Assembly: GCA_018052475.1 (NCBI GenBank)
Contig: JAGPNG010000008.1
Location: forward strand, 11,885 to 75,884
DNA from: Candidatus Fermentithermobacillaceae bacterium
GTDB lineage: Bacteria > Bacillota > Sulfobacillia > Fermentithermobacillales > Fermentithermobacillaceae
DNA length: 64,000 bases
Reading direction: 5' to 3'
A program made the position numbers and the translations under genes. Positions 39,294 through 48,785 of this stretch are shown piece by piece. The first letter of the stretch is position 1. Each line of letters starts with the position of its first letter. Below the pieces are notes generated by a model. The model worked only from the letters and a program-made list of their open reading frames with translations, was not told the DNA's origin and searched no databases.

Positions 39294-39627
39294 CATGTTC
39301 AAAGACCTTTTAGAACTGACCAAGAAAGCACTAACTTTTGCGCAGGGTGGAGACTTTTCGAGTCTTGAGTCGATAATATCGGAAAGGGAAGAGATCCTCA
39401 AACGAATAGACTCCTGTGGCAATCCTCAATTAGGAGATAAAGAATTTGAATCAATCAAAGAGATCATCGTTTCAGTAGGCGAGTTGGATAAGGAGATTGC
39501 CTCGCTTCTGCAACAAGAAATGACGAACATCAGTCACGAGATCTCGGATGTCATCACTCAATTAAGGGTCTTATCAGCTTATTCCACCGGTAACTACTCA
39601 GGGGGACGATTTGATACCGTTTTGTAG
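39259..39627 (+). CDS. FliT-like flagellar protein.
   Basis: 122-aa helical protein directly after fliS. The start may be the ATG at 39286, which overlaps the fliS stop (ATGCTTAA). Confidence 0.5.
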   Translation: MVGKKRLEAMLNMFKDLLELTKKALTFAQGGDFSSLESIISEREEILKRIDSCGNPQLGDKEFESIKEIIVSVGELDKEIASLLQQEMTNISHEISDVITQLRVLSAYSTGNYSGGRFDTVL

Positions 39628-39631
39628 AGTA

Positions 39632-39663
39632 GAAATAAAAAAGCCCCGGTTATAGACCGGGGC
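39632..39663 (-). terminator. Intrinsic terminator for cspA; the hairpin is shared with the end of the fliS-fliT unit.
   Basis: GCCCCGGT (39643-39650) / ACCGGGGC (39656-39663) 8-bp stem with a 5-nt loop. On the - strand it is followed by TTTTTATTT, which is the complement of 39632-39641. Confidence 0.8.
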
Positions 39664-39676
39664 GAGTTGGCTTTGC

Positions 39677-39880
39677 TTACTCAGAAATTCTAGTCACTTC
39701 TGCAGCTTGCAGGCCTTTGGGGCCTTCTACGATTTCGAATTCTACAAGATCGCCTTCGTTAAGCGTACGAAACCCGTCAGATTTGATTGCCGAATAGTGT
39801 ACGAATACGTCTGGACCGTCATCACGTTGAATGAAACCGAAGCCTTTTTGCGCGTTAAACCATTTTACTGTACCTTGCAT
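39677..39880 (-). CDS. cspA: Cold-shock protein (CspA family).
   Basis: [17 protein letters not shown] (RNP1) and VFVHYSAI (RNP2); 67 aa. Confidence 0.95.
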
Positions 39881-39954
39881 TGTGGGACATTCCTCCTAAT
39901 TCCCGACGCTGGGCCCCAACCCAACATCTTTTGGAGCTTTTAGCTCGTGTTGCG

Positions 39955-39983
39955 AATATAGCACGATAAGAAGAAAGAGTCAA
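39955..39983 (-). promoter_or_regulatory. Sigma-A-type promoter for cspA.
   Basis: On the - strand: TTGACT (complement of 39978-39983), then a 17-nt spacer, then TATATT (complement of 39955-39960). An A/T-rich UP-like tract lies upstream. Confidence 0.55.
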
Positions 39984-40287
39984 CAAGTATTTTTGATTTT
40001 GTAGTGAACGGTGGGCGAAAACTGCATAATGATATCTGGGGATAGTGTGGATAATTGTGTTGATAACCACTTAGATGCTATCTTCCATTGTGCACAGTTA
40101 TGTGGATTGCAGGTTCACACATGTATGGGTTTAGCGTATTATTGAATTGAGATTGAAGCGTCGTGTAAAGCCATATGAAAGGTATATGGAACGGACCCGG
40201 AGAATTTATTGTATAGTAACAACAGTTCTTTGGTTATTCGCATAATCCAAAGGCAAAAGTAACGGTTATTTCGAGGAGGCATGCCAC

Positions 40288-40803
40288 ATGGAGATCAACG
40301 TAAGAGGTAAGAACATGAATGTAAGCCCCGCACTTCGGGAATATGCAGAGAAGAAATTGTCCAAATTGGATAAGTATGTAAAGCAGGATTCTTGTTTGTG
40401 CCAGGTGATGTTTTCAACTCAGCGGGGCAGGTACGTGGTTGAAGTTACGCTACCTCTCAACGGCATGATTTTGAGGGCAGAAGAGTCGGCCCAGGACGCG
40501 TTTGCCTCAGTAGACCTGGTTGTTGAGAAACTCGAGCGGCAGCTGGACAAATATAAGACGAGGCTTCTTAAGCGCGATAAGCAAGAACCTCGGTTGTCAG
40601 AACATGAGGAAGAACCGGAAACGGGAAGGATCGTAAAAGTCAAGAGATTTGCCATGAAACCTATGATGCCTGAAGAAGCTGCGATGCAGATGGAGCTTTT
40701 GGGTCACGATTTCTTTGTTTTTTCAAACGGGGAAACCGGTTTGGTTAACGTGATCTACAGAAGAAAAGACGGCAACTTTGGTCTCATTGAGCCGGAAATA
40801 TAG
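40288..40803 (+). CDS. hpf: Ribosome hibernation-promoting factor, long form (YvyD/HPF).
   Basis: MEINVRGKNMNVSPALREYAEKKLSKLDKY is a canonical HPF N-terminus; a long linker and C-terminal dimerisation domain are present. Confidence 0.9.
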   Translation: MEINVRGKNMNVSPALREYAEKKLSKLDKYVKQDSCLCQVMFSTQRGRYVVEVTLPLNGMILRAEESAQDAFASVDLVVEKLERQLDKYKTRLLKRDKQEPRLSEHEEEPETGRIVKVKRFAMKPMMPEEAAMQMELLGHDFFVFSNGETGLVNVIYRRKDGNFGLIEPEI

Positions 40804-40809
40804 GGGCTT

Positions 40810-42000
40810 TTGGGAAACTTGTCTATGTTAAGCGGGGGAGCCAGCTTGGAACAACCTAAGGTTACCGCAGTAATGTTTGAAGGTGGTAAACCGAAAACTT
40901 CTCTAGATGCAAAGATCAAAGACATCCGGAAAGAGATTGCCCTAGATACACTGTCTAAGCTGGCATTGGCACCGGAAATTGACGAAATCATACTTGCAAC
41001 CAATTACGAAGACCTCGCGCGCGAAGCGTCAGAGTTCGCGGTAGTTGATTTAGAGCCAGATGATGGCAAGTTCCATTTTGGACGTAGATTAAGGGAGATA
41101 ATCGTCAATTACCGATTAGAAAACGTGTTGTATATGGGGGGGACAGCTGCCCCCCTTGTGTATTTGGAAGAGTTTGACCAGATTGCCCTTACGCTCAAGC
41201 AGACCCGAAATACAGTCATAATGAATAATGTCCAGTCCGCAGACCTGGTTGCCTTTACTCCTGCAAGAGCAATCGATGAGGTTGAACTACCTGAGAATGA
41301 CAACGTCCTTGGCAATTTGCTTCGCGACATTGGAATGCGGCGGCTTCTTGTGCCTAACTCGGGTAGGGTCAATTTCGATATAGATACCCCAACTGATATC
41401 CTGGTACTTGGTCTGCATCCTAACTGTGGACCGAGATCATCAAGGATCATAAGTTCTCTCGATTGGCCTACTCAGAACCTAAATGATGCCTTACGAATAC
41501 TTAGGCAAGATTCACGTGAGATAGCGGTGATAGGACGAGTGGGGCCTGCGGTCATACAATATATAAACTCCAACATGGTGCATAGAATGCGTGTGTTTTC
41601 TGAGGAGAGAGGTATGAAGGCATTGGGTCGAGAAGAAAGAGGAGAAGTTGTATCTCTATTAGGTTTTATGATAAATGAGGTCGGCCCGAAGATGTTTTTT
41701 GAGTATCTGTCTCGTGTCTGCGATCTAGCCTTCATCGATACAAGAGTGATTTTTGCTCATCTTAAGGGTCAAGTTTCCGATTGGGACAGGTTCTACTCAG
41801 ATCTAGGCCAGTACCAATTGATTGAAGATGAGTGGGTAAGGGATTTTACTAAGAGCGCGGTTGAATGCCCTGTCCCGGTTATACTTGGCGGGCACAGTCT
41901 GGTGGCTGCGGGACTGTGGATTATGGCAGAGATGGTTGCTAAGGAGAAAGAAGATTCAGGGTATCGTCATAACACTGCAATTATGGCCCCGTATATGTGA
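40810..42000 (+). CDS. Uncharacterised protein with an N-terminal MobA/CofC-like nucleotidyltransferase-fold domain.
   Basis: 396 aa; VTAVMFEGGKPKTSLD near the N-terminus and the DIDTPTDILVL motif resemble the CofC/MobA family (DxDTPEDL). The C-terminal approximately 180 aa are unrecognised. TTG start at 40810 directly after the hpf stop. Confidence 0.6.
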   Translation: MGNLSMLSGGASLEQPKVTAVMFEGGKPKTSLDAKIKDIRKEIALDTLSKLALAPEIDEIILATNYEDLAREASEFAVVDLEPDDGKFHFGRRLREIIVNYRLENVLYMGGTAAPLVYLEEFDQIALTLKQTRNTVIMNNVQSADLVAFTPARAIDEVELPENDNVLGNLLRDIGMRRLLVPNSGRVNFDIDTPTDILVLGLHPNCGPRSSRIISSLDWPTQNLNDALRILRQDSREIAVIGRVGPAVIQYINSNMVHRMRVFSEERGMKALGREERGEVVSLLGFMINEVGPKMFFEYLSRVCDLAFIDTRVIFAHLKGQVSDWDRFYSDLGQYQLIEDEWVRDFTKSAVECPVPVILGGHSLVAAGLWIMAEMVAKEKEDSGYRHNTAIMAPYM

Positions 42001-42033
42001 TCGAAGCGCTTTTCCAATTGGGAGTGCATAAAA

Positions 42034-42675
42034 ATGGGCATCAAGGATCATTCAGCCAAAGATTATGAGGACATCATCAAGAAGATAAATGACGTGTTGG
42101 ATTGTCGAGTTTCCATTGGCGAGGACAACAATGTCGACGAAATTAATGTCGTGGCGCGAACAGGTCGTTCGCCCAAATATGTAATACGCGATGTAGAATC
42201 TGCCATCTTGGCGGCATCCGGAGAAAAGATCGATAAAGGTAAGATTTCGATCGTTCAGATGACCGACACAGAATTGGCTTTTGTCGCTCGGCCGAAACTG
42301 GTCGGGATAGAGCTCATGGCAAGCGGATCATCTGCTGTTGCTAGAGTAAGACTTGCTTTGGGTGGAGTAGTTTCTCTCGGAGAAAGTGAAGGAATTGCCA
42401 CTGCGACCAGATGGAACTGGTTTTGCGCAGAAGCTACTGTAAACGCTCTTAGTCATTTCTTGAAAGAAAGTGTTAATATTTCTCTTAGAGATGTAAATGT
42501 ATACGAGTCAAGATCTCTGCGAACGGCTCTGGTTGTTCTTGGTGTTATTGAGGATGGCAGGGAACTAACCCTAACGGGTTCTTGTCCTGTTTCATATGAC
42601 GAAAGGGAAGCGGTGGTAAAGGCGACTCTTGATGCGGTTAATCGGCGGTTTCCAAGGCTTATGGCGAATGCATGA
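42034..42675 (+). CDS. Hypothetical protein, 213 aa, family unknown.
   Basis: Clean ORF with a GGGAGTG SD; internally repetitive segments rich in V, R and G; no motif I can assign. Confidence 0.6.
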   Translation: MGIKDHSAKDYEDIIKKINDVLDCRVSIGEDNNVDEINVVARTGRSPKYVIRDVESAILAASGEKIDKGKISIVQMTDTELAFVARPKLVGIELMASGSSAVARVRLALGGVVSLGESEGIATATRWNWFCAEATVNALSHFLKESVNISLRDVNVYESRSLRTALVVLGVIEDGRELTLTGSCPVSYDEREAVVKATLDAVNRRFPRLMANA

Positions 42676-42935
42676 GATCAGACGGATTTGCACTACTTAA
42701 TAGAAGGACTAATCGAAACAGTCGTTGAACAAATTACTATGCCGACAGCCCGGCAACTTTCATCAGCGGAGCTAAATGAATCTGATCTAGCGATTCAGAT
42801 TCAGCCAGTTGACGGGGGGTTTTTAGGTGAATAAGAAGGTTCTCAGGGTGATTTTCGCCATCCTCACGCTCCTTTTGGCTGGAGCGGCGAACTTTCAAGT
42901 AGGTTAGAGTTTCTGCCGGGGCTGTCGGCCTGGTC

Positions 42936-44201
42936 ATGAGGTGTCTACCGTTGAATAAGAGTCTCAAGTCCTTTGATGTGTATTTATGGGGCATAATATG
43001 CCTTGGCATTGCGTTGCTCTGTATGAACATTCCTTCATTCGAGGGTTGGGCTCACTTTCTAGAAGTATGTTTTTTGGGAGCGCTCATAGCTTTTGGCGAA
43101 ACTCTGGCAATTCCTTTCCCAAAGGGGAAAGGTACCGCTTCTGTCGCTGCCCCTCTCATTTTCACGGTTATCGTTCTGCATGGGCCTGCCATAGGCATGT
43201 GGGTGGCAGCGTTGTTTACTTTGCGCAGACGAGACTTAGCAGGGCAGGTTCCTCTCAAGCTAGTTTTATTCAACAGGGGAATGTTAAGCATATGCGCCTA
43301 TGTTTTCTCCGTGGTGTATGCTTTTCTGGGGGGCGAATTTGGATTTTTGGAATTTCCTTCAGGACTTCTGGCTTTTGTATTGGCGGCGCTAGGTTACACG
43401 ATGCTCAATGCCGTCATGACCGGAGAATTTGTGTCCCTTCAAACCGGACTACCTTTTCTAACCATTTGGCGCCAGAACATAGTGTGGATGCTGCCTAATA
43501 TGTTCGCTTTGTTTCCTCTCGGCGCCCTTATGGTTGTTGTAACCAAACAAGCTGGGCCCCTTGTGCTTCTGCTGTTTTATCTGCCTCTAGTCGTGACTAA
43601 GATGTCCCTTCAGAAATATGTGGATCTAAAAGATACCTATGGCGAAATGGCTGAGGCTTTGGGTACGGCTGTAGATGCGAGAGATCCTTATACCCAGGGC
43701 CATTCCATAAGGGTGTCCGAATACTCTGGGTTACTGGGAAAAGAAATGGGACTTGACGACGAAGAGGTGGACTTACTGAAATACGTTGCCCTTTTGCATG
43801 ATGTGGGCAAAGTAGGAATACCTGACAGCATATTAAAGAAAACAGATTATTTTACATACGAAGAATATGAAGAAATGAAAAAGCATGTTGATATAGGGGC
43901 AGACGTTATTGCGGCGATGAAGATACTGGGTAAGGGTGCGGAGTGGGTAAGATACCACCATGAAAGATGGGATGGTACAGGTTTCCCGAGAGGATTACGT
44001 GGCGAAGAGATACCTCTAGAGGCGCGAATTATTGCCTGCGCAGACGCTTTTGATGCTATGACAACAGATCGGCCGTACAAAGAAAGGATGGACTATGAAG
44101 AGGCTAGAGAAGAGATTATAAGGTGCAGTGGAACTCAGTTTGATCCCAAAGTGGTAGAAGCTATGCTAAAAGTAATTGATGAGAAGATTCTAAGGAAGTG
44201 A
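42936..44201 (+). CDS. Membrane-anchored HD-GYP domain phosphodiesterase (cyclic-di-GMP-type).
   Basis: N-terminal approximately 200 aa hold multiple hydrophobic helices. The C-terminus has LLHDVGKVGIP (HD) and HHERWDGTGFP, a GYP motif with Tyr replaced by Phe. Confidence 0.8.
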   Translation: MRCLPLNKSLKSFDVYLWGIICLGIALLCMNIPSFEGWAHFLEVCFLGALIAFGETLAIPFPKGKGTASVAAPLIFTVIVLHGPAIGMWVAALFTLRRRDLAGQVPLKLVLFNRGMLSICAYVFSVVYAFLGGEFGFLEFPSGLLAFVLAALGYTMLNAVMTGEFVSLQTGLPFLTIWRQNIVWMLPNMFALFPLGALMVVVTKQAGPLVLLLFYLPLVVTKMSLQKYVDLKDTYGEMAEALGTAVDARDPYTQGHSIRVSEYSGLLGKEMGLDDEEVDLLKYVALLHDVGKVGIPDSILKKTDYFTYEEYEEMKKHVDIGADVIAAMKILGKGAEWVRYHHERWDGTGFPRGLRGEEIPLEARIIACADAFDAMTTDRPYKERMDYEEAREEIIRCSGTQFDPKVVEAMLKVIDEKILRK

Positions 44202-44205
44202 TCCG

Positions 44206-44790
44206 TTGTTCCTAACCGTAATGGTCGTTTCCCTGGTTGTTGGGCTAGTTTCGGGAGGCAAGATTTCTCGACTTGCAGATGTAGACCTTGATAGAGTGGT
44301 GTGGATTGCGGGTTCATTCTTGGTGAAAATCGCATCGATCAAGTTGCTAAGCGGTAGATTTGAGCCATATCCGCAGGTTTGCCTCGCTTTAAGTTTCGGT
44401 ACTTACCTGATGCTGTTTTACGGCCTTTATCCGAATCTAAAATTGCCTGGTTTTAGGGCGCTTGCGTTCGGAGTATTTTTGAATTTCCTGGTCATAATGG
44501 CCAATGGAGGCAGAATGCCTGTCGATTTGTCTCCTTTGGGTCCCGATGTCTTGGGTAGCCAAATATCAGTGCTATCTTCCAGTTTTACTCACTGCATGTT
44601 AGGGGACAACACAAGGCTTACCTTTCTTGCAGATATATTCTCTTGGAAGTTTCTTTCCAAAGCACCCACCACGTTTAGTCTAGGCGACATATTCATGGCG
44701 GCGGGAATCTTTTTGTTCATAATGAACGCAATGCACGCAAGTTTTTCGCAGAGGCATAAGAATGGTAGAATTAAAGGCAGTGATATATAG
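44206..44790 (+). CDS. Small polytopic membrane protein of unknown function (possibly a DUF5317-like type often found beside c-di-GMP genes).
   Basis: 194 aa with about 5-6 hydrophobic helices; begins 5 nt after the HD-GYP gene stop. Confidence 0.55.
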   Translation: MFLTVMVVSLVVGLVSGGKISRLADVDLDRVVWIAGSFLVKIASIKLLSGRFEPYPQVCLALSFGTYLMLFYGLYPNLKLPGFRALAFGVFLNFLVIMANGGRMPVDLSPLGPDVLGSQISVLSSSFTHCMLGDNTRLTFLADIFSWKFLSKAPTTFSLGDIFMAAGIFLFIMNAMHASFSQRHKNGRIKGSDI

Positions 44791-44840
44791 GCAAAACTGT
44801 CTTATTGTTTGTGAGTTTGCACTCAGAAAAGGAGATATGC

Positions 44841-47600
44841 ATGTCCATTCTAAAGAATCTGTTTAACGCCAATGACCGGGAGCTGCGAAAAATAAGCCCA
44901 ATCGTCGATTCGGTAGGAAGATTTGAGCCGGTTTTGGAGCGAGCTTCCGACGGAGACCTCCAAGGTAAGACCAGAGAGTTCCGGGAACGCATATCCAGAG
45001 GTGAGCCGCTGGATAAAATACTGCCCGAGGCTTTTGCCGTCGTCAGAGAAGTTTCCAAACGCGTGCTCGATATGAGGCACTTTGACGTTCAGATAATAGG
45101 CGGTGTTGTTCTTCATCAGGGACGTATTGCGGAGATGCAAACGGGAGAAGGAAAAACGCTCGTAGCTACTCTCCCGACTTATCTGAACGCCTTAGGAGGC
45201 GCTACCGTCCACGTAGTTACGGTCAACGACTATCTGGCAAAGCGAGATAGAGAGTGGATGGGTCAGATTTACAGGTTCTTGGGCTTAGATGTAGGACTTG
45301 TAATCCCGGGAATGGAAGTTGCTCAGAAGAAGGATTCTTATTCATGCCCTATCATCTATGGTACGAATACGGAATTCGGTTTTGACTATCTTAGAGATAA
45401 CATGGCTTGGCGCAAGGAGGATCTCGTTCAAAGCCCTCTAAACTACGCTGTAATCGATGAGGTTGATTCAATTCTGATAGATGAGGCAAGAACCCCTCTC
45501 ATAATTTCAGGCCGAGGAGAGGGCACTACAGACAAGTATATAAGATTTAGGGATCTGGCTCGCACGCTAAAAAGGGATAACCATTACACAATAGATGAGA
45601 AAGCTAAGACGATCGTATTGACCGATGAAGGGATCAAAAAAACAGAGGAATGGTTGGGCATAGAGGATCTTTCCGATGAAAACAACATAGGGTTGGAGCA
45701 TTATGTTAAGCAGGCCCTAAGGGCAAAAGAGCTAATGCATCGAGATGTTGACTACGTGGTGAAAAACGGAGAGGTTCTAATAGTAGATGAGTTTACCGGT
45801 CGCATTCTTGAAGGTAGGAGATTTTCAGATGGGCTTCATCAGGCAATTGAAGCCAAAGAAGGAGTAAACATAAAAGAAGAAAGCGATACGCTCGCTACTA
45901 TCACAGTGCAAAACTTCTTCAGGATGTATGACAAACTTTCCGGCATGACAGGAACCGCTGCCACTGAAGAACCGGAGTTTGTAGAAATATACGGTTTGGA
46001 TGTTGTGTCTATTCCACCGAATAAGGCTCTGGTAAGGACGAATATGCCCGATTCTATTTGGAAAACAGCAGACGCCAAGTTCAAAGCTGTTGTTGAAGAA
46101 ATTGCTCACATGCATGAAATTGCCAGGCCCGTTCTTGTGGGCACGCGTTCGGTGGAAAAATCAGAGATGCTATCTTCTATGCTCAAAAGAAGAGGGATCG
46201 ACCATGAAGTCCTCAACGCTAAGCATCACGAACGGGAAGCGGAAATAGTGGCCCAGGCAGGAAGAAAAGGTGCGGTGACCATTGCAACCAACATGGCCGG
46301 GCGGGGAACTGACATCCTACTAGGTGGCAATCCTGACTTCATGACGCGTTCGGCTCTTAGAAAAGAAGGCTATGATCCTGAAGTGGTATCTATCGCCTCG
46401 GAGAAGGTGCTGCCCCAAGCAATACTTGCAAAGGTAGACGAGGGCACACAAGATGAGCGCATTAATGTGATTCTTGAGGCGAGAAGCAGATACAAGGAAC
46501 TCTTTGAGCAGTTCAAAAGTCAGACAGATGAAGAGCATGACGAGGTAGTGTCTTTGGGCGGACTCCATGTTCTTGGAACAGAGCGCCACGAAGCTCGGCG
46601 TATAGATAACCAGTTAAGAGGCAGAGCGGGTAGACAAGGAGACCCGGGCTCGTCGAGGTTCTATCTTTCGTTGGATGATGAGCTTATGCGGCTGTTTGGA
46701 GGGGACCTCATAAGTAACGTTATGGAAAAGGTAGGATTCTCAGAGGACGAGCCTATAGAGCACCCATTGATCACCAAGTCTGTGGAAACAGCCCAGAAAC
46801 GCATTGAGGCGCACAACTTTTCTATAAGGAAGAATGTACTCGAATACGACAATGTTCTGAACAAACAGCGTGAAGTCATATACGCTCAGAGACGCCAGGT
46901 ACTTGAACTTGATGATCTTTCTGATATTCTGCGGAGTATGATTACGAGGACAGTAGAAACGGGCTTTGATGCATTTTGGAATCCGGGCGAAAGGAACCAC
47001 GAGGCAGATATAGACGGGCTTGTTTCTTATCTCAAAGAGCTAATGCCTGCCGTAGATTTCAGAAAAGTTCTGGATTCTGCCAGTTCCAGAGTTGCTGCAC
47101 TAGAAGCCGTCATGCAGGTTTTCGACCAAGGATACAAAGAGAAAGCGGAGATGCTGGGGCCGAACTTCAACGAGGTGCAGCGGCTCATCCTTCTTAGGGT
47201 AGTTGATCAAAAGTGGATAGACCAGTTGCGTGCCATGGAGGGTCTTCGGGAAGGGATAGGACTGAGGGCGTATGGTCAGAGAGATCCTTTACTTGAATAT
47301 CAAAAAGAAGGGTATGAGCTGTTTCAGAACATGATTCAAAATATAGAGAAAGATACAGTTTCCTATCTCTACAGAGTAACTGTATCCAAGCAAAAAGGCC
47401 CCGGATCCACAAAAGATGGTCAAGGAGCCTCGGGGCCGGTAAGAGTAATAAGACTTAGCGGGGCTCAATCTCAAGATACAACTGAAGGCGGACAGCCAAG
47501 ATCTGCCCCGCTTAAGTCCGGGAAAAAAGTAGGCCGAAATGATCCCTGTCCGTGCGGTAGCGGAAAAAAGTATAAGAATTGTTGCGGAAAACTTGGATAA
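44841..47600 (+). CDS. secA: Preprotein translocase ATPase SecA.
   Basis: MSILKNLF...; DEAD-like motor motifs (MQTGEGKTLVATL, DEVDSILIDEARTPLIISG); C-terminal Zn finger CPCGSGKKYKNCCG. The ATG at 44841 lies 6 nt after GGAG. Confidence 0.95.
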   Translation: MSILKNLFNANDRELRKISPIVDSVGRFEPVLERASDGDLQGKTREFRERISRGEPLDKILPEAFAVVREVSKRVLDMRHFDVQIIGGVVLHQGRIAEMQTGEGKTLVATLPTYLNALGGATVHVVTVNDYLAKRDREWMGQIYRFLGLDVGLVIPGMEVAQKKDSYSCPIIYGTNTEFGFDYLRDNMAWRKEDLVQSPLNYAVIDEVDSILIDEARTPLIISGRGEGTTDKYIRFRDLARTLKRDNHYTIDEKAKTIVLTDEGIKKTEEWLGIEDLSDENNIGLEHYVKQALRAKELMHRDVDYVVKNGEVLIVDEFTGRILEGRRFSDGLHQAIEAKEGVNIKEESDTLATITVQNFFRMYDKLSGMTGTAATEEPEFVEIYGLDVVSIPPNKALVRTNMPDSIWKTADAKFKAVVEEIAHMHEIARPVLVGTRSVEKSEMLSSMLKRRGIDHEVLNAKHHEREAEIVAQAGRKGAVTIATNMAGRGTDILLGGNPDFMTRSALRKEGYDPEVVSIASEKVLPQAILAKVDEGTQDERINVILEARSRYKELFEQFKSQTDEEHDEVVSLGGLHVLGTERHEARRIDNQLRGRAGRQGDPGSSRFYLSLDDELMRLFGGDLISNVMEKVGFSEDEPIEHPLITKSVETAQKRIEAHNFSIRKNVLEYDNVLNKQREVIYAQRRQVLELDDLSDILRSMITRTVETGFDAFWNPGERNHEADIDGLVSYLKELMPAVDFRKVLDSASSRVAALEAVMQVFDQGYKEKAEMLGPNFNEVQRLILLRVVDQKWIDQLRAMEGLREGIGLRAYGQRDPLLEYQKEGYELFQNMIQNIEKDTVSYLYRVTVSKQKGPGSTKDGQGASGPVRVIRLSGAQSQDTTEGGQPRSAPLKSGKKVGRNDPCPCGSGKKYKNCCGKLG

Positions 47601-47671
47601 CGGCGCAAAATGTCGTATTATTCATGTTTGGGAATAGGTCACAGGTACCGTAACTAGCGGAGGGAATGATT

Positions 47672-48785
47672 ATGTACGAAGAAGTAATAAGTGAATTGGA
47701 GTCTTTAAGAGAAAGACTGGCAAATATCGGGAGGTCTCTTTGACCCTGTTAAGTTATCCATGGAGTTGGCGGATCTAAATGCCAAAATGCAAGACCCTTC
47801 AGTGTGGGAAGATCGTAGGCGAGCGCAATCAATCGGCAGACGAATAAGCCATATCGAAAACAAACTAAACACATTCAACGATCTCAAGACCCAGGTAGAA
47901 GACAGCATTTCCATAGCTGTTTTGGCCGAAGAAGAAGGCGACATATCGCTTCTAGAAGATCTGAAGCAAACGGCGCAGGAATTGTCTGAAAAGATCCACG
48001 ACCTAGAATTTGAAACCTTGTTTTCTGGCCCGTATGATTCGAGAGATGCCATAGTTACCCTGCATGCCGGAGCAGGCGGTACAGAGGCGATGGATTGGGT
48101 TGAGATGCTCTACAGAATGTACTCTAGATGGGTTGAGCGTAAGGGATTCGAACTGGAGACTCTTGATATGTTACCTGGTGAGGAAGCCGGACTGAAAAGC
48201 GTGAGCTTTTCTGTTAGGGGCGACCACGCATATGGTTTTTTGCGCCCCGAAAAGGGCGTGCACAGGCTGGTAAGGATCTCTCCTTTCGATTCAAATCAGA
48301 GGAGGCACACTTCGTTTGCATCTGTGGACGTGTTGCCCGAGATTGAGGCCGAAGAAGAAGTAGACATCGACCCAGATGAGATCAAGATAGACACATATAG
48401 GTCCTCAGGCGCAGGTGGCCAGCACGTTAACAAGACTGATTCCGCGGTTAGGATCACGCATATTCCTACAGGCATTGTCGTTACATGCCAAAACGAGCGT
48501 TCTCAGCACTCTAATAAGCTCGTGGCAATGAGGGTCTTAAAAGCCAAACTTTTGGCCCTCAAAGAGGAAGAAAGACTAAAAGAGATTGAAAACCTTAGGG
48601 GTCCGCAAAAAGAGATTACATGGGGAAGTCAGATTAGGTCATATGTCTTTCAGCCGTACACGCTGGTTAAAGACCACCGCACAGGCTTGGAGATAACCAA
48701 CGTGGAACGTGTTATGGATGGCGATATAGACGACTTCATATATGCCAAACTGCGGCAAGATGCCGAACGGGCGGCAGACGGATAA
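47672..48785 (+). CDS. prfB: Peptide chain release factor 2, made by a programmed +1 ribosomal frameshift: join(47672..47740, 47742..48785).
   Basis: Frame-0 ORF MYEEVISELESLRERLANIGRSL ends at the in-frame UGA at 47741-47743 within CTT TGA C. This is preceded by the internal SD-like GGGAGG. The +1 frame continues DPVKLSMELADLNAK..., with the RF2 motifs SPF and GGQHVNKTDSAVR. Confidence 0.9.

Follow-up and report, generated by a model that had tools for sequence, protein, structure and literature searches.

The question raised by this locus is whether the four genes that lie between hpf and secA in a Candidatus Fermentithermobacillaceae bacterium form a single signalling cassette. The stretch analysed is 64,000 nucleotides of contig JAGPNG010000008.1 (assembly GCA_018052475.1) and is called the window below; its nearest named relatives are Candidatus Fermentithermobacillaceae, class Fermentithermobacillia, Bacillota. 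An earlier note on this DNA had joined a nucleotidyltransferase-like protein, a protein without family, an HD-GYP phosphodiesterase and a small membrane protein into one signalling circuit that could affect motility. The four plus-strand open reading frames (ORFs) are present between hpf and secA. Comparison with related genomes indicates with high confidence that the interval holds two separable units: unit A, which is gene 1, and unit B, which consists of genes 2-4 and the gap between genes 2 and 3. Unit B is very probably a real module of five parts, namely gene 2, a leader RNA, a micropeptide, a MASE9-HD-GYP protein and a DUF5317 protein. Gene 1 lies outside this phosphodiesterase module. 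The features are as follows.

40288..40803, plus strand: hpf, ribosome hibernation-promoting factor (long form), the upstream anchor outside the insertion, assigned by Pfam and NCBIfam
40846..42000, plus strand: gene 1 (unit A), 384 amino acids; the ORF extends back to 40810
42034..42675, plus strand: gene 2 (unit B), 213 amino acids, cytoplasmic
42741..42929, plus strand: structured leader RNA, enclosed by the long-range helix P1
42765..42771, plus strand: box 1, AGCGGAG, in invariant columns of alignments A3 and A4
42777..42803, plus strand: hairpin P2, arms TGAATCTGA / TCAGATTCA, with box 2 in the apical loop
42827..42907, plus strand: micropeptide gene, 26 amino acids, GTG start; Shine-Dalgarno (SD) sequence GGGGGG at 42814-42819
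42951..44201, plus strand: gene 3, MASE9-HD-GYP protein, 416 amino acids; the ORF reaches back to ATG 42936
44206..44790, plus strand: gene 4, DUF5317 (PF17248) polytopic membrane protein, 194 amino acids
44805..47600, plus strand: secA, the downstream anchor outside the insertion; an in-frame ATG also lies at 44841

Hpf matches Ribosomal_S30AE (97 bits) and S30AE_C (99 bits) in Pfam and TIGR00741 in NCBIfam. SecA was identified through the syntenic ORFs of related loci, which match the window protein at 900-1840 bits (phmmer); the syntenic gene of loci L001 and L002 carries the SecA Pfam domains. Downstream of secA the window has prfB, also on the plus strand. The ORFs of genes 1 and 3 as found span 40810-42000 and 42936-44201. 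Gene 1 had been given 396 amino acids; the ORF stands, and its start is most likely TTG 40846, which was chosen because it has an SD sequence (GGGGGAG, 40834-40840) and agrees with the N-termini of homologs (MEQPKV...). Alternative, longer starts lie at 40810 and 40825. The start of gene 3 was moved from ATG 42936 to TTG 42951 (SD GAGGTG at 42938-42943) since this ATG is absent in a 90%-identical relative, L006. Gene 4 starts 4 nt past the stop of gene 3.

A scan of the window gave no convincing intrinsic terminator from hpf to secA. The GC content and skew of the region are the same as those of the flanks; therefore, the insertion is not both recent and foreign. Searches of the locus with PADLOC and PHROGs were negative and a known defence or phage element was rejected.

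Gene order between hpf and secA

The gene 1 survey covered the 80 closest genome loci of at least 562, onto which the window proteins were mapped. With the loci found through homologs of genes 2 and 4, the comparison includes about 90 loci. Functional statements that go beyond sequence, fold and conservation are inferred. Related genomes have three arrangements between hpf and secA: hpf-gene 1-gene 2-gene 3-gene 4-secA, hpf-gene 1-secA and hpf-gene 2-gene 3-gene 4-secA. These support the earlier view of an insertion relative to the hpf-secA order, which we take to be bare in Bacillus subtilis.

Of the 59 loci with enough sequence, 48 have all four genes side by side on one strand, and gene 2 is the next gene 3' of gene 1 in 58/70. 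The order hpf-gene 1-secA, with genes 2-4 absent, occurs in 8/70 loci, mostly from Symbiobacteriaceae, and locus L088 has genes 2, 3 and 4 between hpf and secA with gene 1 absent. Desulfosporosinus meridiei and Acididesulfobacillus acetoxydans carry gene 2, the gap, a MASE9-HD-GYP gene and a DUF5317 gene at unrelated chromosomal sites, without gene 1, hpf or secA, and L089 is a further independent site of unit B. Since gene 1 and genes 2-4 are present or absent independently of each other, they are treated as two units. The internal order of unit B (gene 2, gap, gene 3, gene 4) is kept both between hpf and secA and at the relocated sites. The expected co-conservation of the four genes was thus borne out for genes 2-4 and not for gene 1.

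A few loci do not fit this picture easily. Genes 2 and 3 occur without gene 4 in three loci. L090 has a DUF5317 gene beside secA and no HD-GYP gene within 4 kb; this could be what is left of a former module, or DUF5317 could serve there independently of an HD-GYP protein. Gene 1 stands alone in L044, where its neighbours (a methyltransferase, Hsp20, FtsH and TilS) give no functional hint.

Unrelated genes lie between hpf and gene 1 in about 7 loci and between genes 1 and 2 in L053, L056 and L058. Both junctions appear as insertion hot spots (L061 6641-7996; L053 9172-10575; L077 7150-7740, minus strand). The inserts include a B12-binding radical SAM protein, a DUF438-hemerythrin-PAS protein and, in L077, an opposite-strand sigma factor of the extracytoplasmic function type (assigned by eye). 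Since they are unrelated to each other, they provide no clue to function. In L090 (3953-7263) the DUF5317 gene is directly upstream of secA and follows genes for a 145-amino-acid uncharacterised protein and a Trp-repressor-like protein.

Gene 1 and its linkage to hpf

Gene 1, a cytoplasmic protein of two domains, has no family in Pfam or NCBIfam. Its own family is large: a word-indexed search gave more than 1183 matches, and at least 562 GTDB species have a member; some Joint Genome Institute (JGI) records name the homologs MocA. An AlphaFold model built from 45 sequences (predicted local distance difference test, pLDDT, 91.4; predicted template modelling score, pTM, 0.89) gives the N-terminal domain, approximately residues 1-195, a CofC/FbiD-like and MobA-like nucleotidyltransferase fold. 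The CofC/MobA-like character proposed for the N-terminal half is therefore retained for the predicted fold, while the profile searches did not return it. The invariant polar residues of the protein are E19, R35, N134, N135, S138, D140, D159, N160, D185 and D187. So many of them argue for a working active site, though not that of a canonical CofC.

The hallmark of FbiD is a set of three aspartates, D116, D188 and D190, that bind two Mg2+ (PMC6450877). The invariant D185-x-D187 of gene 1 aligns with the D188/D190 position. The GDEP position of KdsB reads GG(A/T)AAP in the gene 1 family in a weak alignment (E 0.07), and in this same weak alignment only, the equivalent of the third metal-binding Asp looks like Ala. 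The N-terminal loop is FEGG-x(13)-R and not GxGxR or KxRL. Gene 1 of the window has no match to NTP_transf_3 (PF12804) at E up to 1; 9/45 homologs match weakly, the best at E 2.3e-5. Membership in NTP_transf_3 as a MobA-like protein was rejected because there is no Pfam match and no GxGxR-type loop. A canonical CofC/FbiD was rejected because no Pfam or NCBIfam model matches and no cofD/fbiA partner is evident among the annotated neighbours of the loci examined, a check of neighbourhoods and not of whole genomes. Gene 1 thus has a predicted nucleotidyltransferase fold in common with the CofC/FbiD guanylyltransferases of F420 biosynthesis (PDB 2I5E, 6BWG, 7P97), but differs from them in the missing CofC and NTP_transf_3 matches, the FEGG loop and an extra C-terminal domain of 180 amino acids.

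This C-terminal domain (approximately residues 200-375) is predicted to be a four-stranded alpha/beta, Rossmann-like domain with conserved loops at the strand ends (GRVGP, SEERGMKALGR, IDTR and LGGHSL). No fold or family match was obtained for it. Phmmer, run exhaustively against 1.84 billion representatives, returned 435 clusters, nearly all of 360-400 amino acids with the C-terminal domain in the same place; therefore, the domain is confined to the gene 1 architecture. A TrkA_C (RCK_C) ligand-binding domain is added at the C-terminus of 4/45 homologs (P0096, P0106, P0110 and P0120, about 449 amino acids), which hints that the Rossmann-like domain is perhaps a KTN/RCK-like nucleotide-binding module.

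The strongest functional lead for gene 1 is its tight linkage to hpf, which lies upstream of it in 72/75 loci with usable sequence and no more than 150 nt away in 58. The gap in the window is 42 nt, measured from the TTG start, and gene 1 is probably co-transcribed with hpf. Gene 1 could act with HPF in ribosome hibernation or stationary phase, for instance as the producer or the sensor of a nucleotide-linked metabolite. This linkage, the lack of a terminator after hpf, the predicted nucleotidyltransferase fold with its Rossmann-like and probably nucleotide-binding domain, and the TrkA_C fusions are consistent with such a role. However, the sampled lineages are related, so a vertically inherited gene order may suffice and the linkage could reflect synteny without common function. 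The inserts between hpf and gene 1 and the lone gene 1 of L044 also count against it; the role is possible, but it seems more doubtful than not.

The leader RNA and micropeptide gene of unit B

In nearly every locus, gene 3 is preceded by a gap of about 190-330 nt. The earlier note had listed a signal-peptide-like mini-ORF in this 260-nt gap of the window, and the mini-ORF has turned out to be a real and conserved coding gene. The gap was underrated, as nothing else in the locus is as novel as the micropeptide gene and the covarying RNA around it. The window micropeptide, MNKKVLRVIFAILTLLLAGAANFQVG, has a single transmembrane helix and a signal-peptide-like layout. A micropeptide gene with its own SD sequence is found in essentially all of about 65 loci, distant ones included, with the consensus K-L-L-K-V-L-L-A-I-L-A-L-L-L-A-G-(A/G)-A-N-(F/W)-Q-V-G (25 residues in the module). 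The basic N-terminus, an LAGGA motif and the [FW]-Q-x-G end are conserved. Over 53 distinct sequences, the entropy at the three codon positions is 1.05, 0.58 and 1.62, and the synonymous share of codon differences is 36% in frame versus 6-10% in shifted frames. The codon-position pattern and the synonymous excess indicate that the mini-ORF evolves as a coding sequence. Gene callers left it unannotated in all loci examined.

Related peptides of 30-33 amino acids occur in a second gene order, here called type B. In these loci a DUF5317 gene is followed by a single-transmembrane mini-ORF with a strong SD sequence and then by a gene for a GGDEF-HD-GYP protein with several transmembrane segments. 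The type B loci are L086 (5001-7718; Paenibacillus sp. FSL W8-1187, CP150181) and L087 (5001-7609; a metagenome contig). The enzyme of L086 has a weak MASE9 match; its public gene call has 400 amino acids, whereas the actual ORF has 633 and a membrane N-terminus. Two gene orders therefore bring the micropeptide together with DUF5317 and a membrane HD-GYP protein.

Small membrane proteins are known to modulate sensors or transporters, as in MgrB-PhoQ, SafA-PhoQ, MgtR-MgtC and KdpF-KdpABC. Like MgrB, SafA, MgtR and KdpF, the micropeptide is a single-pass peptide of 25-33 amino acids, an operon-mate of a polytopic sensor-type membrane protein and missed by gene callers. It differs from those systems in that its gene lies inside a covarying long-range RNA helix and that a third membrane protein, DUF5317, is present. 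A generic literature query found no comparable peptide for an enzyme of cyclic di-GMP (c-di-GMP).

The leader RNA is enclosed by P1, which pairs 42741-42751 with 42919-42929; in the minimum free energy (MFE) fold the pairing extends to 42741-42755 with 42914-42929. Boxes 1 and 2, hairpin P2 and the entire mini-ORF all lie within P1. Its 3' arm in the window begins 11 nt past the stop of the mini-ORF and ends 8 nt before the SD sequence of gene 3. Across loci the arms lie upstream of the boxes and 5-25 nt past the mini-ORF stop, and P1 is a perfect helix of 10-16 bp in nearly every locus (median z 4.2) with lineage-specific arm sequences. On alignment A4 (32 sequences), 92.4% of the cells are paired and 8/9 pairs show compensatory changes. 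The observed value was reached by 0/500 shuffles, and slid registers gave 16-51%.

The MFE fold of the window leader contains both P1 and P2 (z -3.3). A stem of at least 5 bp flanks box 2 in 36/41 leaders, with stem sequences that are unrelated between lineages; this support for P2 comes from a per-locus analysis and not from a formal alignment count. The P2 loop shows TAGCGG across leaders, and box 2 of the window is TAGCGA (42788-42793). Both helices covary and are under selection.

The motif AGCGRAG is present in 2-5 copies per leader, and box 1 (AGCGGAG) is invariant in most of them. The leaders of Desulfitobacteriaceae have 4-5 tandem AGCGRAG boxes instead of the box 1-P2 layout. A search for the box pair gave 81 matches in 2.3 Mb, 58 of them within the gaps between genes 2 and 3, which make up 0.7% of the sequence. 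The pair is therefore enriched more than 400-fold in these gaps; it has a single match in the 64-kb window. On their own, the box words show no enrichment across the genome; for AGCGGAG this idea was rejected at 7 observed versus 8.4 expected. Rfam gave no match to the leader at the gathering threshold in the window scan and none at E up to 5 for 42676-42950. In the scans of the window and of 39500-45000 the leader was empty, and the sole hit in its vicinity was a sub-threshold cspA 5' untranslated region (5'UTR). CsrA was judged unlikely as the reader of the boxes, as box 2 usually has no GGA core.

The strings AGCGG(G)GGAG and TAGCGGAGGG are the SD regions of gene 1 (40831-40840) and prfB (47655-47664). 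Since box 1 resembles these strings, that is, an SD sequence with its upstream context, it could attract ribosomes, as a decoy or standby site, instead of binding a protein. Close relatives also conserve AAAAGGAA...CGTAGAAT just upstream of the P1 5' arm (42676-42740; alignment A3 columns of about 25-70). This block could be an internal promoter for a transcript that starts at P1. The TAGAAT-like block is kept in close relatives; the window copy, CGTTGAAC, is weak and was missed by a consensus promoter scan, and distant loci have too little room upstream of P1 for a promoter block.

Through this structure, the leader would control the production of gene 3 and DUF5317 post-transcriptionally, with P1 clamping the segment just before the ribosome-binding site of gene 3. 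Ribosomes that end the mini-ORF 11 nt before the P1 3' arm could open P1 and so couple gene 3 to translation of the micropeptide. Such coupling is a tentative proposal that leans to the doubtful side.

P1 could instead be an element for RNA processing or stabilisation, cut by RNase III or shielding the RNA, that keeps the expression of gene 2 apart from that of the micropeptide and genes 3 and 4 and has no role in sensing. A perfect, GC-rich helix of 10-16 bp nearly everywhere (about 15 bp in the window MFE fold), located between two cistrons that possibly need different stoichiometry, agrees with this explanation. However, RNase III substrates are usually about 20 bp, so most P1 helices are short for this enzyme, and the invariant AGCGRAG boxes and P2 are left unexplained. 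A processing element is unlikely as the full account; it is compatible with, and not exclusive of, the proposed translational control.

It is less probable still that the leader is a metabolite riboswitch or a leader-peptide attenuator and that the peptide itself has no function. The structure is indeed conserved, and boxes 1 and 2 contribute invariant nucleotides at single-stranded and loop positions; it is directly upstream of the ribosome-binding site of gene 3, and P1 encloses the ORF. Against this, the peptide is conserved as amino acids at its basic N-terminus, LAGGA motif and [FW]-Q-x-G end, and the type B loci keep a related peptide without boxes or the P1 context. There is also no terminator 3' of the structure and no Rfam match, and a box number that varies from 2 to 5, with no boxes in L005 and L055, is unlike a ligand pocket.

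The proteins of unit B and a possible mechanism

Gene 3 was described earlier as an HD-GYP phosphodiesterase with an N-terminal membrane domain and a GFP motif, and the domain searches agree. It matches HD_5 (126.6 bits) and HD (92.1 bits) in Pfam (HD_5/HD E 1e-36), and MASE9 (PF20972) above the gathering threshold (26.9 versus 24.3 bits). Residues 1-220 contain about 7-8 hydrophobic segments. The metal-ligand motifs are complete (LHDVGK, GHS, KKHV, HHERWDG and CADAFDAM), so the protein is not a degenerate copy. The acidic residue of the third metal and the trinuclear subclass (E185 position) is found in DARDPYTQGH in the window and is D/E in 61/65 orthologs. The RxY[K/R] motif that specifies guanine 1 reads DRPYK and is canonical in all 40 orthologs where the pattern was located. 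The GYP motif itself is GFP (HHERWDGTGFP); 38/65 orthologs have GFP and 25/65 have GYP, with GFP limited to the clade of the window and close relatives. In HD-GYP enzymes the Tyr of this motif hydrogen-bonds a non-bridging phosphate oxygen of c-di-GMP (10.1101/2021.11.05.467447). The KPG position that contacts guanine 2 is KTD in the window, KQG or KEG in close relatives and KPG in distant orthologs. Gene 3 looks catalytically competent from these motifs, with substrate contacts that have drifted.

The MASE9-HD-GYP architecture was catalogued by Galperin and Chou, with Thermotoga maritima TM1467 and Streptomyces venezuelae HdgA as examples, and they proposed that MASE9 binds a ligand within the membrane (10.1101/2021.11.05.467447). 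Gene 3 has the same membrane MASE9 and HD-GYP architecture, metal ligands, third-metal acidic residue and RxYK as the TM1467/HdgA type. As catalogued, those proteins are stand-alone, whereas gene 3 belongs to a module, and its clade has GFP and KTD/KQG/KEG. The term DUF5317 is absent from their text (10.1101/2021.11.05.467447). An extra and more divergent HD-GYP gene lies between the MASE9-HD-GYP gene and the DUF5317 gene in L005 (11378-12706), L034, L036, L038, L039, L051, L055 and L082.

Gene 4, noted earlier as a polytopic membrane protein, scores 107.8 bits against DUF5317 (cut-off 25), and 28/28 aligned homologs match this family. In alignment A5 the residues N93, N100, D143 and D161 are invariant and located in membrane segments, within the motifs LNFLVIxANGGxMP, FLADIF and FSxGD. 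For DUF5317, an uncharacterised Pfam family, a full-text search over 8 million papers returned no match. DUF5317 adjoins HD-GYP genes in three different arrangements.

Gene 2 has no family in Pfam or NCBIfam, as had been suspected. Its predicted structure has a beta-alpha-beta domain at the N-terminus, and the C-terminal part is folded like the allosteric domain of LeuA and citramalate synthase. The LeuA_dimer (PF08502) score is below threshold (14.2 versus 24.9 bits), and the gene 2 profile gave chance-level matches only, to short-chain dehydrogenases, against PDB sequences. The regulatory domain of LeuA and citramalate synthase (Pfam LeuA_dimer; PDB 3F6G, 3FIG) binds amino acids. Gene 2 is predicted to share this fold, but it is stand-alone, has the extra beta-alpha-beta domain and lacks the catalytic TIM barrel. 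Judging by the predicted fold, gene 2 is a candidate ligand sensor or regulator.

These parts suggest a mechanism, which together with the division into two units is on balance the preferred overall reading. The micropeptide and DUF5317 would assemble with MASE9 in the membrane and control the HD-GYP domain, whose activity would be the hydrolysis of c-di-GMP. The AGCGRAG boxes, one of them on the P2 loop, would bind a trans-acting factor. The most economical candidate for this factor is gene 2, given its ligand-sensor fold, its constant position immediately upstream and the analogy with hutP. HutP, TRAP and PyrR are ligand-activated RNA-binding regulators, and a hutP-type gene sits just upstream of its target leader RNA. 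The layout here is similar to that of hutP-type operons, with a small regulator-like gene, a structured leader with short repeated boxes and then the regulated genes. However, gene 2 has no detectable homology to HutP, TRAP or PyrR, there is no terminator/antiterminator pair, and two lineages are without boxes.

Several points tell against this mechanism. Gene 2 matches the fold of a small-molecule-binding domain and not of a known RNA-binding domain. L005 and L055 keep gene 2, P1 and the micropeptide without AGCGRAG boxes, and gene 2 and the boxes are both missing from the type B loci, which do have the micropeptide; both observations weaken the idea that gene 2 reads the boxes. Binding of the boxes by gene 2 is the weakest step of the mechanism and is unlikely. 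A tripartite complex of the micropeptide, DUF5317 and MASE9 is plausible from their recurrent association, with the balance tipping slightly to the other side. The substrate of gene 3 may not be c-di-GMP, since the Tyr of GYP is replaced by Phe and KPG by KTD, KQG or KEG in the clade of the window. In a bolder version, the MASE9-HD-GYP enzyme would be the catalytic subunit of a new three-protein membrane sensor. DUF5317, with its Asp/Asn tetrad, would be an intramembrane enzyme that processes the micropeptide or presents it to MASE9 as a ligand, and gene 2 would be a dedicated RNA-binding regulator that reads the boxes of a novel type of cis-regulatory RNA in response to a metabolite, giving a c-di-GMP switch gated by both peptide and metabolite; this version is improbable.

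Slightly less probable again is that DUF5317 is an intramembrane aspartyl peptidase, similar to signal peptidase II, that cuts the micropeptide into a signal sensed by MASE9. The two invariant Asp and two invariant Asn in membrane segments, the signal-peptide layout of the micropeptide (L-A-G-G/A-A and then about 5 more residues) and the co-occurrence of both proteins in two architectures would suit a peptidase. Hhalign also sets both Asp opposite the catalytic Asp of LspA, but at a probability of 1.7%, so that an LspA-like peptidase has no statistical support. LspA was not hit by the DUF5317 profile against PDB sequences at E up to 10, Peptidase_A8 matched none of the 28 DUF5317 members, and in most micropeptides the residue at lipobox +1 is not Cys.

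The weakest explanation is that of one four-gene module, with gene 1 as the maker or modifier of a nucleotide-derived signal and the HD-GYP protein as its degrader, affecting motility; adjacency on the same strand in 48/59 loci, short intergenic gaps without a terminator and the predicted nucleotidyltransferase fold of gene 1 speak for it, but it is highly improbable and largely refuted by the independent distributions of gene 1 and genes 2-4 (hpf-gene 1-secA without genes 2-4, genes 2-4 without gene 1 in L088 and elsewhere, and unrelated inserts between genes 1 and 2). CofC-type enzymes also activate small phospho-acids and do not synthesise cyclic dinucleotides (PMC6450877, PMC8764529). The flagellar neighbourhood that had served as a clue to motility is absent at the relocated modules; since the module is found in other neighbourhoods, the placement among late flagellar genes is inherited synteny.

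Two observations concern genes outside the interval. The prfB gene (window 47673-48785) has a programmed +1 frameshift site, CTT TGA C, at 47739-47745, preceded by an SD-like GGGAGG, which is a known phenomenon; the true start of release factor 2 (RF2) is ATG 47673 and not the listed ORF start ATG 47760. A cold-shock gene lies at 39677-39880 on the minus strand with a strong terminator at 39663-39643. The region 39636-40049 (minus strand), which covers its 5'UTR and coding region, matches the Rfam cspA thermoregulator, though below threshold (51 bits versus a gathering threshold of 78, E 4e-11).

Gene 1 belongs to a two-domain family that is unannotated and sizeable (at least 435 clusters at 50% identity, at least 562 species); the family is tightly linked to hpf in deep-branching Bacillota and is a candidate for studies of ribosome hibernation and stationary phase. 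For unit B, the enzyme class and the MASE9-HD-GYP architecture are known, whereas the micropeptide, the DUF5317 partnership, the association with gene 2 and the leader RNA appear to be undescribed in the libraries searched. HD-GYP proteins are the least understood c-di-GMP enzymes. The locus supplies testable partners for MASE9, namely a micropeptide, DUF5317, a protein with an amino-acid-sensor fold and a covarying leader RNA. Should the proposed complex prove real, an accessory-subunit system would have been described for an HD-GYP enzyme for the first time, and the micropeptide gene would be among the few functional small-protein genes embedded in a conserved RNA structure.

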